Source of the DNA: Candidatus Iainarchaeum sp.
GTDB taxonomy: Archaea > Iainarchaeota > Iainarchaeia > Iainarchaeales > GCA-2688035
NCBI GenBank assembly: GCA_017610205.1
Contig: JAFCCL010000003.1
Coordinates: forward strand, 1-64,000
DNA: 64,000 bases
Direction: 5' to 3'
Part shown: piece by piece, positions 26,532 to 33,755 of the stretch
How the letters are laid out: each line of letters starts with the position of its first letter
Numbering within the stretch: the stretch's first letter is position 1
The notes under the pieces: generated by a model
Databases searched by the model: none
Seen by the model: only the letters and a program-made list of their open reading frames with translations
Told to the model about the DNA's origin: nothing
Translations under genes and position numbers: made by a program

Positions 26532-27401
26532 GGGCTCTGCAGAAATCATTTATAAATAGAAGAAAAGCGTTCATATAATCGAGGTGATTCCATGAACGCT
26601 TTGTATCCAATAGAGCTTTCAGGTTTTTATAAGTTATGCATTAAGGTTTTGGAGGAAGTTCGCTTTCCCCTATGGTTTTTCTACCGTTCAAAGAAAATGT
26701 ACAACAACTTTGTACAGGTATTTCTGTTAGTGTACAAAAAGAGGTTGAACATTTCATATAGGAAATTTGTAGAGATAGCTGTTGAGAACAAACCGTAGAG
26801 GATGCTTTGCATCAAACGCATTCCACACTATACTACTTTGCAAAAGTTCATGCAACGCATAGACAAGAAGCTGTTTGAGAAGATGGTTAGAGCCTGCAGA
26901 AAACTGTTAAACTTGAAAGAAGTTACTGGCAGTGTTGATGAAACAGGATTTTCAAACACAAACCCCTCATATCACTACCTAAAACGAATAGATAATGCAA
27001 GGGCCAAAAACTATGCAAAAACCGTATTTTTAACCGATAATAAAACAAAGCTTATTTTGAACATCAGAACTCACTCAGGCCATCAAAGCGAAACACTGGA
27101 CTTTATTCCACCAGTAAAAGAACTGAAAAAGGTCTTGTCCTACGTGCTAGCAGACAAAGACTATGACAGCAAAGCCAACAGACGCTATTGTTGGGATAAC
27201 TGTATCGAAGTTCACATTCCTATAAGAGGGCGGAAACAGCACAGGCCAGGGCTATAGCCTAAAGCCATTTCTTAAAAGCAAGTACTGCAAGAAAGCAGCC
27301 AAACTGTTTGACAAAAACAAAAACAACTACAGAAGCCTGATAGAATCAGTAAACTCAGCAATCAAACGAACACTTGGCAGTTATGTTTGCTCTTGCAGAG
27401 T
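26532..27401 (+). pseudogene. decayed IS5-like element / transposase pseudogene
   Basis: IPHYTTLQKF, VDETGF, LADKDYDS, RSLIESVNSAIKR; in-frame TAG at 26796, frameshift near 27255, truncated 3' end; boundaries approximate. Confidence 0.8.
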
Positions 27402-27554
27402 TTTTAATTGCACTGCTTATTTACAAAACCATAAAGAATCAGAGTTTTATAGCACTTATTCTTCTTTTACAAGTATTAGTATTTATTTTTCTGTTTCTAT
27501 TATTTAACAGTATTGTTGGCTGAGGCTTTGCACTTAAAGTCTGATTTTTAAGGC

Positions 27555-27586
27555 ACTTTAGGTGCAGAAAAAATACTTTAGGTGCA
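27555..27586 (+). repeat. left subterminal repeats ACTTTAGGTGCA x2
   Basis: 27555-27566 and 27575-27586, 20-bp period. Confidence 0.9.
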
Positions 27587-27590
27587 AATA

Positions 27591-28055
27591 TTATTCTAGT
27601 TTTGAGACTTCCTCTATTTTAGCAACATGCTCTAAACTTACATTTTGAGAAATCCCTGCTAAAAGAACGATAAAGCCAATTGAATAATTTTTTATGGAAC
27701 AAAGATTTGCTAAATGAACTCGGTCTATCTTTCTTCTTTTTTTTAAAATGGATAATGGGTCGGGTTTTCGGTCTGAACCACTTATGCTAGAATTATAAAC
27801 ATGTATTTCTCTAGCTTTAAGAAACTCGCCTTGTTTAGTACAAGGATTAAGGGTTCTACTTTTAAGTTCTTTTATCTTATTGACAGTCGTTGCTTGGTTA
27901 GCTTCTTTTGATATTGCACAACGAGCATTAGACTCCAATTTCACGCCCGTATTTACTCTGCGAGGTATTTTTTGGCTTATGGATTTGAATTCGCAACCAA
28001 TTACGCAATCATTTTTATCAGTAAATCTATTTTTGAAATAGTCCTTAAATTGCAT
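27591..28055 (-). CDS. transposon cargo hypothetical protein
   Basis: 154-aa ORF coupled (TAATG) to upstream gene; weak PIN-like DRVHLA motif. Confidence 0.5.
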   Translation of the reverse strand: MQFKDYFKNRFTDKNDCVIGCEFKSISQKIPRRVNTGVKLESNARCAISKEANQATTVNKIKELKSRTLNPCTKQGEFLKAREIHVYNSSISGSDRKPDPLSILKKRRKIDRVHLANLCSIKNYSIGFIVLLAGISQNVSLEHVAKIEEVSKLE

Positions 28056-28336
28056 TAAGACATCACAATTAGCTTATTTTCTTGTAGGCGTTTAAGAACA
28101 AACAAGACGTCTTCATAAGGAATGTTTAAATCAGATGATATTTTTGAAGTGGTAGCTTCTTTTTTTTCCTTTAAGTACTTAAGTATTGCTGGTGTATATT
28201 GTTTAATTACTAACTTAAGCTTGTCATGATTTGTTACAACAAGGTCTTCCAATATTGCACCAAATAAATTATATCCCTCATTCAACTCAATTGGATGAAA
28301 TACAAAAAAGTCATTTAACAGGAATAAAGATATCAT
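28055..28336 (-). CDS. small wHTH protein (cargo)
   Basis: ILKYLKEKKEATTSKISSDLNIPYEDVLFVLKRLQENKLI. Confidence 0.65.
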   Translation of the reverse strand: MISLFLLNDFFVFHPIELNEGYNLFGAILEDLVVTNHDKLKLVIKQYTPAILKYLKEKKEATTSKISSDLNIPYEDVLFVLKRLQENKLIVMS

Positions 28337-28743
28337 TCTAGCGCCTCTTTTTTCATTTCTTTTTCTATTTTCATTTCTTCTTCTAATTTTCTTTTTATAA
28401 ATTTTGAAAATTCATCTAATTTATTAGCAAATTCTCTTTTTTCTTTAATACTCATTTCATAAACCCTTTGTGATTCCATGCCAAGTTTAGACGCCTTTAA
28501 TACTATAAGCAACATTGTAGACTTAACTCTTTCTGGAACAGAATCATTATCTGTTATTAACGAGGGGTCGTCTTTTATTTTAAGCATCACTTCATAATGC
28601 TTGGGAAAATTTTCTTGAATATCAGCTAACAGTCTAATTGGAGTCGCACCATTCCGAATTGATGCATCAAAAAATCCAATCATAGCCGTAGCAAATTCTG
28701 GCTCTTCTGAATTAGAAACGGATACTTCTTTAGTTTCGGTCAT
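28333..28743 (-). CDS. transposon cargo hypothetical protein
   Basis: 136-aa ORF with ATGA overlap to next gene. Confidence 0.6.
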   Translation of the reverse strand: MTETKEVSVSNSEEPEFATAMIGFFDASIRNGATPIRLLADIQENFPKHYEVMLKIKDDPSLITDNDSVPERVKSTMLLIVLKASKLGMESQRVYEMSIKEKREFANKLDEFSKFIKRKLEEEMKIEKEMKKEALE

Positions 28744-28812
28744 AGTAATCTACTGAGTTAAAGTCTAAGGTAAGTGGTTTTTAAAACACTTTCTATAATT
28801 ATAACTATTTAA

Positions 28813-30042
28813 TCATCCAAAGTTATAAAATACCTTCTTTTTTGTAAGTAGTTTATCCTTAAAGATAAGTGGTATTCCAAGTTCATATACCTCGTGAATT
28901 AAAACTACTATATTATGTGCTAAGCATTTACAAAGTAGTTCATTCTCTTGCGCAATTCTATTTTTGCTTTTGAGTTTATCACCGAATTTCATTTTTATCA
29001 TGTGGAATGTTGTTTCAACATTTGAACGTTTATGATAGTGTTGGTTAAATTCTTCTTGGTGTAAGGCAAAATAGTGAAACATTTTTCTCCAAAGCTTCCC
29101 TCTGTTTCCAGAACGAACTGTTGCAGTAACATTTTTTTTGAATGGAATGAAAGCTTTGCCACCCACTTCGTTCACAAGATTATAATTTGCTATTGAATTA
29201 TATGCTTTGTCTGCTGAAACATCAACAAGATTAAAACCATTGTCTGCTGTTGCTTGAACAAGAGAAGAAAATTGAGGACAATCTGCACCGTTTGCATCAG
29301 TTACTTCAACGCTTGTAATTACATTGGTTTTAACGCCTGTGCAAATATGAGCCTTTAGCCATTTGTGTTCTTTTTTTGTCCCATGCTTTTCTTTACAGTA
29401 TTCGTTAAATTGTGTTGTTCTGAATCCGCTTGAATCTACTGCAAATTGTGTTTCAACCTCTTTAAGTGGCAAGGCACTCAAACCAATTAACTCTTTTAGA
29501 ATTGGTGTTGCTTCTTTTGTATTCAAAAATTTGGAAGTGGTGTTAAAGTGTGGCGAATTTTTGAGTAAGCCTTTATCTTTTGCATTATTGAATAGGCTTT
29601 TTGCTCTCCTGCTTGAAAGCTGTGAATAAACCTTTTGCACACTACAAAATAACTGTTCTCTTATTGGTGTTGTTGGTCTACCAAAAGAGTATTCTGGTTC
29701 TTGCACGCTTTCAAGCAAATCTCTTAACAATCTGTCAAATTCGTTCACTTCTGTTGTTTGTGCTTGGTTATAAGCGTGCCAAGCCTGTCCGTATGTTAAT
29801 TTGACTTTTTCTGTTGTTCCGTCTGCCTTTTCAACTTGCAAATAGTATTTTACAGCGTAAGCGTGCTTGCAGTATTCGCTTCTTCCTGCTTGGCAATCAG
29901 GACAAGTGCATTTTAAATCCTGTTCTGAAACAAAATAATTTTTGTTACCGTTTTGTGAAGGCACTAAGAAACCGCCTTCAATTTTCTTTATTGTTTTGGT
30001 TTGACTTATTAACAAACCTCTATCCATTCTACTATTTTCCAT
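28813..30042 (-). CDS. DDE transposase (IS5/IS4-like core) with N-terminal SWIM zinc finger
   Basis: CTCPDC...CKH SWIM; FAVDSSGF, SADKAY, YHKRSNVETTFHMIK; intact ORF. Confidence 0.9.
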   Translation of the reverse strand: MENSRMDRGLLISQTKTIKKIEGGFLVPSQNGNKNYFVSEQDLKCTCPDCQAGRSEYCKHAYAVKYYLQVEKADGTTEKVKLTYGQAWHAYNQAQTTEVNEFDRLLRDLLESVQEPEYSFGRPTTPIREQLFCSVQKVYSQLSSRRAKSLFNNAKDKGLLKNSPHFNTTSKFLNTKEATPILKELIGLSALPLKEVETQFAVDSSGFRTTQFNEYCKEKHGTKKEHKWLKAHICTGVKTNVITSVEVTDANGADCPQFSSLVQATADNGFNLVDVSADKAYNSIANYNLVNEVGGKAFIPFKKNVTATVRSGNRGKLWRKMFHYFALHQEEFNQHYHKRSNVETTFHMIKMKFGDKLKSKNRIAQENELLCKCLAHNIVVLIHEVYELGIPLIFKDKLLTKKKVFYNFG

Positions 30043-30056
30043 AAAACCACTTCCTT

Positions 30057-30110
30057 TATTCTATATAGAATAGAGTGCATAGGGTTTATAAACATATTCT
30101 ATATAGAATA
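30057..30110. promoter_or_regulatory. bidirectional promoter with twin palindromic operators
   Basis: TATTCTATATAGAATA at 30057-30072 and 30095-30110, flanking palindromic GTTTATAAAC at 30084-30093. Confidence 0.7.
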
Positions 30111-30116
30111 ATAGTT

Positions 30117-30284
30117 ATGGTAAAAACCTTTGAATACGAAGCAAAAATAAGCAAAACAACCGACAAAAAAAAACTCGCAACAAACGAAACAAAAAACTAC
30201 GATTACGGAACAATAAATCTAAGAAAAACAGAACTAGCCAAACACATTGGAAAAAAAGTAAAAATAACTATACTGGTAGATTAA
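30117..30284 (+). CDS. small AbrB/DUF2080-like transposon-associated protein
   Basis: MVKTFEYEAKI...YGTINL...HIGKKVKITILVD; divergent from transposase. Confidence 0.6.
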   Translation: MVKTFEYEAKISKTTDKKKLATNETKNYDYGTINLRKTELAKHIGKKVKITILVD

Positions 30285-30285
30285 G

Positions 30286-31275
30286 ATGGAAAAAAAGCAA
30301 TTAAACAAAAGAATGCATACTGCGAGAGGGAATAAGAATGATGATTTTTATACCCAACTTACAGACATTGAAAAAGAGTTAAAACACTACAAAAAACATT
30401 TCAAAAACAAAATAGTTTTTTGTAATTGTGATGACCCTCGTGTAAGCAACTTTTTTCATTATTTTTCATACAATTTTGAGAAGTTGGGATTGAAAAAATT
30501 AATTACTACTTGTTATAAAAATCAACAAATGAACTTATTTAGTAAATGTAAATCTGAAAAAGCTATTTACTTAGAATATATAGGTGACAAAAATAAAAAT
30601 AATATCCCAGACCCTAAAGAAATAGGTATTAAATATTTAAAAGGAGATGGCGACTTTCGTAGTAAAGAATGTATTGATTTGTTAAAACAGTCTGATATTG
30701 TAGTTACCAATCCTCCTTTTTCATTATTTAGAGAATATGTAGCTCAACTTATTGAATATGACAAAAAGTTTTTAATTATAGGAAACCAAAATAACATTAC
30801 TTATAAAGACATATTTAATCTGTTAAAAGAAAACAAGATTTGGTTAGGGGTGGATAACGGTGGGACAAAATGGTTTCAAGTTCCTGACAATTATGATATA
30901 GCTACAGAATCAAGAATAAAAATAGAAAATGGCAAAAAGTTTTTTAGTATGGGTAGCGTTGTTTGGTTCACAAACTTGGATATTGAAAAGAGGCACGAAG
31001 ATTTAATTCTCTATAAAACGTACAAAGGACATGAAAAAGAATACCCAAAATACGACAAATACGATATTATTAATGTAGACAAAGTAAGTGATATCCCTAT
31101 TGATTACAAAGGAATTATGGGTGTGCCTATCACTTTCTTAGATAAATATAACCCTGAACAATTTGAAGTCAAAGGAATTGCCAACAGTGCAAGGTGGATT
31201 GGTTTTGAGTGTTATACTTTAATTAAGCGCAAAAAAATATATAACAGAATTCTGATAAGAAACAAGAAACTTTAA
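30286..31275 (+). CDS. M.EcoRI-family N6-adenine DNA methyltransferase
   Basis: KNDDFYTQL, FCNCDDP, GDGDFRS, DIVVTNPPFSLFREY. Confidence 0.9.
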   Translation: MEKKQLNKRMHTARGNKNDDFYTQLTDIEKELKHYKKHFKNKIVFCNCDDPRVSNFFHYFSYNFEKLGLKKLITTCYKNQQMNLFSKCKSEKAIYLEYIGDKNKNNIPDPKEIGIKYLKGDGDFRSKECIDLLKQSDIVVTNPPFSLFREYVAQLIEYDKKFLIIGNQNNITYKDIFNLLKENKIWLGVDNGGTKWFQVPDNYDIATESRIKIENGKKFFSMGSVVWFTNLDIEKRHEDLILYKTYKGHEKEYPKYDKYDIINVDKVSDIPIDYKGIMGVPITFLDKYNPEQFEVKGIANSARWIGFECYTLIKRKKIYNRILIRNKKL

Positions 31276-31300
31276 ATAAGCGTATTTACATTGTTATTCT

Positions 31301-32377
31301 ATGAAAATAGACCTAAAAAGAATCACAGCTGGCGAATTATCAAAGGATTATCAAGACAATGCTGAAGCAGGAGTAGTTGGTTTTGGTGGAAAACTTGATA
31401 TTCGCCCACCATTTCAAAGAGAATTTGTTTATAAGGACAAACAGCGTGATGCAGTAATTAATACGGTTACAAAAGATTTCCCACTTAATGTAATGTACTG
31501 GTCAGTTTGTGATGATGGAAATTTTGAAATAATAGACGGTCAACAAAGAACCATATCTCTTTGTCAATATATCACTGGCGATTTCTCAATTAATGGATTA
31601 GCATTTCACAATCTTCCAAAAGACAAACAAGAACAAATACTAAAATACCCATTAATGATTTATTTGTGTTCAGGAACCGATAGTGAAAAATTGGACTGGT
31701 TTGAAACAATTAACATAGCGGGCGCAAAACTTACTGACCAAGAATTACGAAACGCAGTTTATTCTGGCTCATGGGTTTCTGATGCCAAACGTTATTTTTC
31801 TAAAAATAATCGCCCAAAAATAGGGGATGATTATTTAAGTGGAACTGCAATCCGACAAGAATACTTAGAAACCGCTATCGAGTGGATTTCAAAAGGAAAA
31901 ATAAAGGAGTATATGTCAAAGCATCAACACGACCCAAATGCGAATGAATTATGGTTATATTTTCAATCAGTTATAAATTGGGTAAAAGTAACATTCCCCA
32001 AATATCGCAAAGAAATGAAAAATGTTCCTTGGGGAGTTTTGTATAATTCATTTAAAGATAAAAAGATTGATGCAAAGAAATTAGAAAAAGAAGTAAGTAA
32101 ATTAATGATGGATGATGATGTTACAAAAAAGTCAGGCATTTACATTTATATTTTAACAAAAGAAGAAAAAGTTCTTAATATTCGTTCTTTTACTGCTAAT
32201 CAAAAGAGAGAGGCTTATGAAAGGCAAAAAGGTATTTGTCCAAAATGTAAGAAAAAGTATGAACTTGAAGAAATGGAAGCTGACCATAAAACCCCTTGGA
32301 GCAAAGGTGGAAAAACTACTGCTGAAAATTGCGAAATGCTTTGTATAAAGCATAATAGAGAAAAATCTGGCAAATAA
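31301..32377 (+). CDS. DUF262 (ParB-like/GmrS) + HNH endonuclease
   Basis: PPFQREFVY, IIDGQQRT, FETIN; C-terminal CPKC...EADHKTPWSKGG...NCEMLC..HNREK. Confidence 0.88.
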   Translation: MKIDLKRITAGELSKDYQDNAEAGVVGFGGKLDIRPPFQREFVYKDKQRDAVINTVTKDFPLNVMYWSVCDDGNFEIIDGQQRTISLCQYITGDFSINGLAFHNLPKDKQEQILKYPLMIYLCSGTDSEKLDWFETINIAGAKLTDQELRNAVYSGSWVSDAKRYFSKNNRPKIGDDYLSGTAIRQEYLETAIEWISKGKIKEYMSKHQHDPNANELWLYFQSVINWVKVTFPKYRKEMKNVPWGVLYNSFKDKKIDAKKLEKEVSKLMMDDDVTKKSGIYIYILTKEEKVLNIRSFTANQKREAYERQKGICPKCKKKYELEEMEADHKTPWSKGGKTTAENCEMLCIKHNREKSGK

Positions 32378-32416
32378 ATCTTGCATATTAATACTTGAAT
32401 ATAATTAAGTGATAAA

Positions 32417-32605
32417 ATGGTTAGGGGACTGGAAAGTTTAGAAGCTAACAAGCATTTACATAGCCAACGTTCTCCTGAATTTAAGGCTCTAAAAATGGCT
32501 TCTGAAAATGGCTTCCCTAATTGTAAGGGACTATATCCTGATTGCCCTGACAAACCTGATAAAAAGAACAAGATGTGTAGAACTTGCCCTGTTTTGGATG
32601 AATAA
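32417..32605 (+). CDS. small Cys-containing cargo protein
   Basis: 62 aa, C..C...CRTCP. Confidence 0.5.
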   Translation: MVRGLESLEANKHLHSQRSPEFKALKMASENGFPNCKGLYPDCPDKPDKKNKMCRTCPVLDE

Positions 32606-32624
32606 AAAGAATAATAATCTATAG

Positions 32625-32674
32625 ACTTTAAGTGCAAGTTTCAGACTTTAGGTGCAACCTTTACTTTAAGTGCA
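32625..32674 (+). repeat. right subterminal repeats ACTTTA(A/G)GTGCA x3
   Basis: 32625-32636, 32645-32656, 32663-32674 (the last lies within the TIR). Confidence 0.9.
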
Positions 32675-32849
32675 AAGCCGTTGGCTGATGCTAATTTGAA
32701 AAACTTTCAATTTCAACAAGTTAATATTATGTTTCCATTAAATTAAGTTATAAAAAAAAGTTTCGCGTAGCGTTTTTTTTTGCAAACTTTTTTCTAAAAA
32801 GTTTCGCAAGCATAGTTACCCTGCTGTAAAAAAGAAATTTCGGCAGCCA

Positions 32850-33755
32850 TTATGCTGCCACGTCTATATCTAATCTTTTCTTTAGTTCTCTGTACCTGTT
32901 TCTGATTGTTACCTCTGTAACACCGGCAACATTGGCAACTTCTTTTTGGGTCCTTCTTTCCCCTTTAAGCAGTCCTGCAATGTAAACTGCTGCGGCTGCA
33001 ACTCCTGTTGGGCCCCTTCCTGAAATAAGGCCTTTGTCAATGGCTTGTTCCAAAATCTTTCTTCCCTCTTCCTGGACTTCTCCGCTTAGGTTGAGTTCTG
33101 AAGCAAATCTTGGAATGTAGTGAATTGGGTTTGTCAAAGGTACATCAAGCTTAAGCTCTCTAACCAGGAACCTGTAGGTTCTTCCAATTTCTTTTTTTGT
33201 CAAACCGCTTGCTTCTGCCATTTCGTTCAATGTTCTTGGCACGTGATATGTTCTGCATACTGTGTAAAGAACTGCTGCAACCACTGCTTCAATAAGCCTT
33301 CCTCTGATTAGTCCCTTTTTTACTGTTTTTCTGTAAAGCAATGCTGCTGCTTCAACAAGTGATTCTGGAATGTTCAAATATGATGCAACCCTTCTCAATT
33401 CTGTTAAGGCAATTGAAAGGTTTCTTTGCATGCTTGAGCTAATGCTTGCTCTTTTATGCCATTTAATTAAACGGTACATTTGTGCCCTGCTTTTGCTTGA
33501 AAGCTTGTTTCCCCTAAGGTCGGTTCCACGCCTGTCAATCATTGTCACAAGCCCTTTGTTGAGCTTTACATATTTCATAGGGCTTCCTGTTCTTGCCCTT
33601 TGCTCAAACTGGTCTGAGTCAAAAGAACGCCATTCCTTTCCATAATCTACCATGTCTTCGTTTATAACAAGACCGCAATCCTGGCAAATAAGCTCTCCTT
33701 TTTCAGGATCTCTCCTAATTTTTGTGCTTTTGCACTCTGGACATTTATTAACCAT
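32850..33755 (-). CDS. tfb: transcription initiation factor IIB
   Basis: CPEC...CQDCG Zn ribbon, EWRSF, two cyclin repeats, VTEVTIRNRY. Confidence 0.97.
   Translation of the reverse strand: MVNKCPECKSTKIRRDPEKGELICQDCGLVINEDMVDYGKEWRSFDSDQFEQRARTGSPMKYVKLNKGLVTMIDRRGTDLRGNKLSSKSRAQMYRLIKWHKRASISSSMQRNLSIALTELRRVASYLNIPESLVEAAALLYRKTVKKGLIRGRLIEAVVAAVLYTVCRTYHVPRTLNEMAEASGLTKKEIGRTYRFLVRELKLDVPLTNPIHYIPRFASELNLSGEVQEEGRKILEQAIDKGLISGRGPTGVAAAAVYIAGLLKGERRTQKEVANVAGVTEVTIRNRYRELKKRLDIDVAA

Follow-up and report, generated by a model that had tools for sequence, protein, structure and literature searches.

The closest described relatives of the element reported here are bacterial insertion sequences of the IS5 family, specifically those recognized by the NCBIfam model NF033579 (annotated as ISAba10-family and ISBvi6-family), which we take to be the IS903 group of ISfinder, with its 9-bp repeats and GGC ends. 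These elements are compact, about 1 kb long, with simple terminal inverted repeats (TIRs) and no passenger genes. Within a 64,000-nucleotide stretch of Candidatus Iainarchaeum sp. (positions 1 to 64,000 of contig JAFCCL010000003.1, assembly GCA_017610205.1; hereafter the window) lies an element, at 27524-32679, that does not have this compact form, as it is 5,156 bp long and carries six copies of a 12-mer. It is very probably a structurally intact, single-copy unit transposon of the IS5 family, with a SWIM-finger transposase, asymmetric ends with six sites in all, and a restriction-modification (R-M) system as cargo. The element lies within the IS5 family, and the architecture and cargo behaviour of its own family appear to be undescribed in the literature that we searched.

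The window element resembles the bacterial NF033579-type elements in its DDE_Tnp_1 core with the Y-x2-R-x3-E-x6-K motif, its GGCTTTG termini, its 9-bp duplication and its single unframeshifted transposase open reading frame (ORF). The bacterial elements differ in having a transposase of ~310 aa without a SWIM finger, a single TIR at each end and no room for cargo. Several transposase-binding repeats at each end, differently arranged at the two ends, are features of Mu, Tn7 and Tn552, which produce 5-bp target-site duplications (TSDs). The window element has comparable repeats, likewise arranged differently at its two ends, and differs from these systems in its unrelated transposase family, the lack of ATPase and target-selector genes, and a TSD of 9 rather than 5 bp; searches of its eight ORFs with Pfam and NCBIfam found no TnsB/MuA-type or ATPase domains. 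SWIM fingers are carried by the eukaryotic Mutator-like (MULE/FAR1) transposases, and PIF/Harbinger elements are related to IS5. The window transposase has the SWIM CxCxnCxH signature and a DDE core in common with MULE/FAR1, but its finger is N-terminal on an IS5-type rather than a Mutator/IS256-type core, and we found no evidence of a direct relationship to either MULE/FAR1 or PIF/Harbinger transposases.

Passenger genes between one TIR and the transposase gene have been described for IS231-subgroup elements of the IS4 family (De Palmenaer et al. 2008, PMC2266710). In the portions of that study drawn on here, these elements are similar to ours in passengers beside a TIR, sizes up to ~5.4 kb and a YREK-type DDE core; they differ in belonging to IS4, in their CAT ends and 10-12-bp repeats, and in being bacterial, and the same portions are silent on SWIM domains and on arrays of subterminal sites. 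Among archaeal passenger carriers, casposons (as outlined in PMC6563490) also have TIRs and TSDs and differ by their Cas1 integrase and PolB polymerase, and aloposons (as outlined in PMC8813620) differ by tRNA-gene integration and giant proteins. Neither group, as presented in those outlines, has a DDE IS5-type transposase, unlike the window element. The relevant passage of the 2019 survey of archaeal integrated elements (Krupovic et al., PMC6563490) states that passenger-carrying transposons were undetected in archaea, and the available account of Furuta et al. (2010) reports that no archaeal R-M system passed a repeat-flank screen. Our literature search found no paper joining SWIM to IS5 or DDE insertion sequences, and an ISfinder entry for a member of the family is possible. 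The literature on archaeal passenger or cargo transposons, paper supplements apart, yielded no description of this family.

The boundaries of the element are sharp. Both an inverted-repeat listing and direct reading give a 17-nt TIR pair, 27524-27540 on the plus strand and 32663-32679 on the minus strand, with 100% complementarity (17/17). The first (GGCTTTGCACTTAAAGT), at the end 3' of the transposase gene, includes the terminal 12-mer at 27529-27540; the second lies at the end 5' of the transposase gene, which is the cargo-bay end. Directly against these repeats are the two copies of the TSD GTTGGCTGA, at 27515-27523 and 32680-32688. This 9-mer occurs exactly twice in the window. Such a pair is not significant alone, since two or more matches arose in 15 of 100 shuffles; its weight derives from placement against the TIRs and not from rarity. 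Perfect 17-bp TIRs and an exact 9-bp duplication had been proposed in an earlier note on this DNA, and the coordinates and the repeat listing bear out both. The element thus has the composition of a unit transposon: one transposase, TIRs, a TSD and, between the TIRs, genes not involved in transposition. Its GGC-starting termini and 9-bp target duplication are those of NF033579-type, IS903-like IS5 elements. GC content is 0.28-0.36 within the element and 0.37-0.40 in the flanks. Other classes were considered and rejected: a composite transposon, as just one insertion-sequence copy is present; an integrase-type island, as there is no integrase or tRNA gene; and an Rfam-recognized RNA element, as Rfam matched nothing in the window.

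The transposase (409 aa; 28813-30042, minus strand) is encoded by a single intact ORF. Pfam, NCBIfam and an alignment of 24 sequences identify in it an N-terminal SWIM finger and an IS5-type DDE core, in agreement with the earlier note. The core matches DDE_Tnp_1 with an E value of 4.5e-27. The finger (C45-x-C47-x10-C58-x-H60) has the CxCxnCxH signature and matches SWIM (PF04434) at 21.5 bits, above the gathering cut-off of 19.6. The catalytic triad is D203, D278 and E343, the last within Y336-x2-R339-x3-E343-x6-K350 (YREK), a motif defined in the pertinent section of PMC2266710. C45, C47, C58, H60, D203, D278, E343, Y336, R339 and K350 are all invariant over the 24 sequences. In an AlphaFold model with a mean pLDDT of 82, residues 19-67, which contain the SWIM finger, form strands and a helix. 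Foldseek matches were limited to DDE transposases and integrases of a generic kind (ISCth4, piggyBac and Tn5, E 2e-4 to 3e-3), with TnsB as a weak match, and a search with the family profile found no PDB chain at E up to 1. In the ESM Atlas the protein falls among clusters automatically named 'Transposase DDE/SWIM zinc finger', some of which have bacterial labels that derive from few members. A search for a promoter upstream of the transposase gene defined none, as these regions align too poorly among four close relatives.

Comparison with bacterial proteins places this transposase at the edge of a known group. A search of 72,556 plasmids gave, as its best matches, IS5-family transposases of bacteria with ~25% identity that cover only residues 74/88-391, and no match covers 80% of the query; because the bacterial matches stop there, the SWIM segment is an addition. 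Of the NCBIfam models, NF033579 ('IS5 family transposase') gives the highest score, 133.0 bits against a cut-off of 140; the archaeal relatives L128, L064 and L067 score 131.6, 138.9 and 141.2. We read eight bacterial relatives without SWIM and scored four of them on this model, where they reach 364-380 bits as opposed to 131-141 for the archaeal proteins. The eight are 1,023-1,059 bp long with GGC(T/G/A)TTGTTGCA termini, and the 9-bp TSD is perfect in half of them (4/8). Additional sites at the 5' end are absent from all eight (0/8), and one has a possible single inverted copy at position 51. As the catalytic core, terminal heptamer and 9-bp stagger are common to both, we regard the archaeal clade as an outlying branch of this IS5 subgroup, with the SWIM finger, end arrays and cargo on the archaeal side only. 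The suggestion that the family is possibly unclassified was therefore too strong: Pfam and database names make the transposase IS5, one archaeal relative passes 140 bits on NF033579, and GGCTTTG termini and 9-bp TSDs are common with bacterial members. The note had allowed that its view would fall if homologues belonged to a described insertion-sequence family with the same end structure. Half of this has come about, because the family is described, yet arrays, SWIM and cargo are absent from the eight bacterial relatives.

The ends are more elaborate than simple TIRs. Allowing at most one mismatch, the core ACTTTARGTGCA has six matches in the window where 1.26 are expected, a number reached in 0 of 100 shuffles. 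The copies begin at 27529, 27555, 27575, 32625, 32645 and 32663, all within 63 bp of an element end. The right end has three 12-mers in a single orientation, spaced by 20 and 18 bp, and at the left end two inner 12-mers are inverted relative to the terminal copy, with spacings of 26 and 20 bp. From this opposition of orientation and spacing it follows that the ends are asymmetric. Two inner 12-mers per end had been noted before and are indeed present, but the 18-20-bp spacing given for them applies to the right end and not to the left. Core-match searching and the family alignment assign the inner copies to D2 (ACTTTAGGTGCA; 27555-27566) and D3 (27575-27586), inverted relative to the terminal site at family positions 32 and 52, and to U3 (32625-32636) and U2 (32645-32656), oriented as the terminal site at family positions 44 and 24; all four are recorded on the plus strand. 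In element coordinates, five 12-mers face one way and the 3' terminal site alone is inverted, so the two ends are not equivalent.

This arrangement recurs across the family, whose termini have the form (G/A)GCTTTGC. On the 5' side of the transposase gene, the end has the consensus gGCTTTGCacnTAAAgT-6-TGCaCnTAAAGT-8-TGCncnTAAAgT and contains direct sites at positions 6, 24 and 44; at the 3' end, the terminal site is accompanied by a pair of inverted copies, at positions 32 and 52. One element, L118, has its transposase gene reversed relative to the ends. Inner sites lie within two mismatches of the element's own terminal core in 51 of 62 elements for U2, 43/62 for U3, 39/62 for D2 and 38/62 for D3. 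Mean mismatches of the inner sites are 2.0-2.9 to their own core, 4.0-4.8 to the cores of other elements and 9.3 off register; the observed fit to the own core was reached in 0 of 2,000 permutations, a test that kinship among the elements inflates. The inner 12-mers equal the inner portion of the TIR minus the terminal GGCTT, as would suit binding-only sites to which extra protomers are recruited.

Relatives of the transposase are numerous. Among 8,000 scored candidates, at least 7,396 have E values up to 0.001, and an exhaustive search of 50%-identity cluster representatives found 4,958 proteins at E up to 1e-3, 2,516 at 1e-10 and 771 at 1e-30. The 120 best relatives are 387-431 aa long with query coverage of 94-99%, and the few named ones among the best, from Micrarchaeota and Iainarchaeum, are called 'IS5 family transposase' or 'transposase'. 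For delimiting elements we used the best 80 of 190 relative-encoding stretches in species-representative genomes, together with 65 metagenome loci. The 80 stretches are almost wholly archaeal, with a handful of contigs bearing a bacterial label. Their hosts include Micrarchaeota, Diapherotrites, Aenigmatarchaeota, Altiarchaeota and Nanohalarchaeota; Methanothrix, Methanoregulaceae, Methanosarcinales, Methanoperedens and Methanocellaceae; and Thermoplasmata, Bathyarchaeia, Hadarchaeota and Halobacteriales. An element was delimited where an exact 9-mer occurred on both sides of the transposase gene, each copy abutting a 17-nt inverted repeat with at least 13 of 17 positions matching. Such pairs were found at 48/80 genome loci and 15/65 metagenome loci, 63/145 in all, compared with 4/145 and 2/145 for decoy geometries at the same loci. 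With the window element this gives 64 elements (62 distinct) of 2,326-9,146 bp, median 4.6 kb; none is near the ~1.5 kb that we estimate for a transposase gene plus ends. Similar TIRs, 9-bp TSDs, subterminal arrays and variable cargo thus recur among homologues, the pattern for which the earlier note had proposed looking.

Two further observations concern the distribution of the family. A Methanothrix metagenome-assembled genome contig (L096, 1-4933) carries two 2.46-kb copies head to tail, 9 bp apart, within one outer TSD pair, and this tandem stands as a single 4,933-bp entry among the 62 elements. In the IMG/VR viral collection, 15 loci encode transposase relatives, and five of them (four distinct: L203, L206, L208/L209 and L212) hold TSD-and-TIR elements of 2.0-6.7 kb. 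Carriage of the family by viruses or proviruses might account for this, as might the presence of host sequence in these contigs.

Comparison of close relatives reveals that ends and transposase gene are shared while the cargo, mostly DNA methylases or R-M systems, is swapped. In L128, L046 (G015) and L129, the transposases are 90%, 83% and 74% identical to that of the window. The DNA in common with the window element is limited to 55 bp at the start, 70-78 bp at the finish and, between them, the transposase gene together with the 14-35 bp preceding it; the cargo is instead an N6_N4 methylase with a 218-aa ORF, or a D12 methylase with a 173-aa ORF. Elements of Methanoregulaceae have the same modularity, including two copies within one genome. 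A Pfam census of 114 cargo ORFs of at least 150 aa found N6_Mtase (16), Eco57I (10), UPF0020 (9), Methylase_S (8), N6_N4_Mtase (6), NYN (4), MmeI_Mtase (4), GmrSD_N (3), HNH (3), EcoRI_methylase (2), D12 methylase (2), BsobI endonuclease (1) and C5 methylase (1). The motif (D/N/S)PP(Y/F/W) occurs in 24 of 117 cargo proteins, from 23 of 48 elements, versus 7 of 724 flank ORFs. The 25 elements without it encode three more methylases, and Pfam assigns no family to the majority of their other proteins. In an all-against-all blastp comparison, 135 of 188 cargo ORFs were singletons.

The cargo of the window element comprises seven non-transposase ORFs, three to the left of the transposase gene (154, 93 and 136 aa) and four to the right (69, 329, 358 and 62 aa), in line with the seven ORFs on both sides described in the earlier note. 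The two largest, both on the plus strand, are a Type II N6-adenine DNA methyltransferase of the EcoRI-methylase family (30286-31275; Pfam EcoRI_methylase E 3.9e-130, PADLOC MTase_II E 1.1e-125) and a Type II restriction endonuclease with GmrSD_N (DUF262) and HNH domains in Pfam (31301-32377; PADLOC REase_II PDLC03418 E 8.6e-147). The REase_II match is full length, with residues 1-358 on profile positions 1-372 of 372, and so is the MTase_II match; judged from the sequences of these two adjacent genes, a Type II R-M system is thus complete within the cargo, and the defence cargo foreseen in the earlier note is substantiated. Two other elements, L077 from Micrarchaeota and L081 from Altiarchaeia, carry the same methylase and nuclease pair.

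None of the five small ORFs has a PHROGs or PADLOC match. On the minus strand, the 154-aa ORF (27591-28055), the last in the string of genes on the transposase strand, also has no Pfam or NCBIfam match, and of the candidates scored from 5.8 billion proteins just two, at 67% and 58% identity, are homologous to its product. The 93-aa ORF (28055-28336) shares 4 nt with one neighbour and 1 nt with the other and possibly encodes a winged helix-turn-helix protein (TrmB E 0.0013 and DUF4423 E 0.0012, both under the cut-off). The 136-aa ORF (28333-28743) has no Pfam or NCBIfam match. On the plus strand, the 69-aa ORF (30075-30284), without a Pfam match, stops 2 nt ahead of the methylase start, and its true start codon is uncertain. 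The Cys-rich 62-aa ORF (32417-32605; CxxxxxxC...CxxC) has a C-terminus (FPNCKGLYPDCP...CRTCPVLD) with a paralogous coding stretch on host contig C14 (G000:C14:41906-42009), which likewise adjoins the end of a methylase-like ORF; the ORF may encode a small zinc-ribbon protein travelling with methylases. The region separating the divergent transposase and R-M genes contains two copies, 38 bp apart (30056-30111), of an A+T-rich palindrome of 18 bp, TTATTCTATATAGAATAA. Its arms at 30056-30072 and 30095-30111 are 17/17 complementary, the second copy falls within the annotated start of the 69-aa ORF, and the copies are possibly TATA-box or operator sequences.

The host genome comprises 1.37 Mb in 24 contigs and is 92% complete. 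The genes flanking the element are archaeal and include TFB (32850-33755), ribosomal protein S8e and a Hef-type helicase-nuclease; the element itself has an insertion-sequence remnant (26532-27400) on its left and, on its right, the TFB gene, whose 3' side faces it. The remnant derives from a different small insertion sequence. It contains two ORFs, of 68 and 151 aa, and has possible CTCTGCA inverted ends; the longer ORF aligns with the first half of DDE_Tnp_1, and copies of 69-91% identity to the remnant are present in G017 and G020, two genomes related to the host. An element end from a related genus, with four copies of the 12-mer (L045, G016:C17, 10560-10720), lies ~170 bp from the homologous TFB gene, on its opposite side; a duplicated 28-bp stretch precedes it, and the contig stops 250 bp later. 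Elsewhere in the host, contig C10 carries an open 78-aa fragment (G000:C10:117066-117278) that is 54% identical to transposase residues 331-401 and is probably a decayed second member of the family.

Homology of the flanks to 40 related genomes is uneven. The left flank (26592-27523) is matched in 4/40, and in none of the six same-genus genomes, by sequence that belongs to the neighbouring remnant. The right flank is matched in 37/40, where homology begins only at 32822-32828; for the six same-genus genomes it begins 134-140 bp right of the element. From the TSD onward, the right flank aligns to a paralogous stretch of the host (G000:C10:46626-46806), which has no such alignment to the left flank (score 40; shuffle mean 37.5, maximum 53). 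Within this same stretch of C10, a 57-bp segment 91% identical to window positions 32707-32764 lies 21 bp upstream of a 103-bp remnant-like segment 96% identical to 26543-26645, the start of the insertion-sequence remnant; in the window the two pieces are 6 kb apart and in reverse order. The intergenic region 32755-32810 contains repeated AAAGTTTCGC-like units and looks like a dispersed short intergenic repeat: related genomes have matches to it of 22-55 bp (80-100% identity) in many places, as many as nine of them in G028.

These features can be combined into a model of how the element would move. The transposase would bind the ends, cut at the GGC termini and join them to a target with a 9-bp stagger, the repair of which would yield the GTTGGCTGA duplication. 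Movement could be cut-and-paste or partly replicative; the IS5 family, according to the available part of PMC11708052, uses both pathways. The four inner sites are predicted to be extra transposase-binding sites without the cleavage-proximal GGCTT. By analogy with Mu and Tn7, they could build a multi-protomer complex in which the ends are distinguishable, without accessory ATPase genes, and the SWIM finger may take part in binding them. The space from the tri-site end to the transposase gene forms the cargo bay, here filled by the Type II R-M system; in the sub-clade of the window element, variable small genes also occur after the transposase gene. An R-M cargo would both defend the host and penalize loss of the element.

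Several results weigh against this interpretation. The transposase falls 7 bits under the NF033579 cut-off. No TSD-and-TIR pair was found at 32 of the 80 genome loci and 50 of the 65 metagenome loci; most of these are cut by contig ends, but flanks are ample at about eight of the genome loci. No methylase is recognizable in the cargo of about half of the elements. The covariation of inner sites with their own core was assessed with a test that ignores the relatedness of the elements, and the 3' end, with its inverted sites, permits a structural role. It folds as a single strand far more stably than shuffles on both strands (z -4.87 and -5.91; 0/200 shuffles as good), where the 5' end folds no better than shuffles (z +0.55 and +1.38). 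The inner 12-mers might accordingly not be transposase sites at all: the inverted copies at the 3' end could pair with the terminal copy into a hairpin, in the RNA of the transposase operon or in single-stranded DNA, or all four could bind another regulator or host protein. We consider this unlikely. Direct inner copies at the 5' end are unable to pair, the inner pair is spaced by 20 bp at both ends alike, the inner copies co-vary with their own terminal core as recognition by a single protein predicts, and the terminal GGCTT is missing from them.

The recent insertion and probable activity proposed in the earlier note are a separate matter. Because the element is present once in a 92%-complete genome, the genome offers no evidence of recent movement; the search for an empty site with a single GTTGGCTGA, as the earlier note had proposed, recovered none among the 40 related genomes; and the nearest transposase found is just 90% identical. 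Each of these could be expected if the element were a fossil, inserted once, now immobile, and retained for a useful or addictive R-M pair. Set against this are TIRs that match at 17/17 positions, a TSD that matches at 9/9, an open 409-aa ORF with every invariant catalytic and zinc-binding residue, and a GC content that still differs from that of the host. These points do not amount to proof of activity, but they make a fossil somewhat less probable even than the hairpin or foreign-protein account of the inner sites, and the element may still be active. It is far less credible that the boundaries are an accident, with a short insertion sequence beside unrelated genes and outer repeats that arose by chance or from a composite. 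The other insertion-sequence remnant directly to the left (26532-27400) is the kind of neighbour that this would involve, but there is a single transposase gene with no second insertion-sequence copy inside, and the same layout of end, cargo, transposase and end, with exact 9-bp TSDs, was recovered at the other loci at a rate that decoys do not approach.

The interpretation as an intact IS5-family unit transposon can be extended, more tentatively, to the whole family. A pan-archaeal and apparently undescribed class of DDE unit transposons, combining an IS903-type core, SWIM and six-site ends in a Mu/Tn7-like complex without ATPases, might through its conserved cargo bay be a main vehicle of R-M and other defence genes among DPANN-type archaea, methanogens, Thermoplasmata and viruses. 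We find this conceivable, at somewhat below even chances. What has been observed is that one transposase family accounts for 62 delimited cargo elements in many archaeal lineages, as against the statement on archaeal passengers in the cited passage of the 2019 survey (PMC6563490). If this holds up, a compact single-protein transposon with distinguishable ends would be a potential archaeal genetic tool. The family would also offer a route to mine for unknown defence genes, as about half of the cargo has no family assignment. Finally, it would explain in concrete mechanistic terms why R-M systems are distributed so patchily among archaea.

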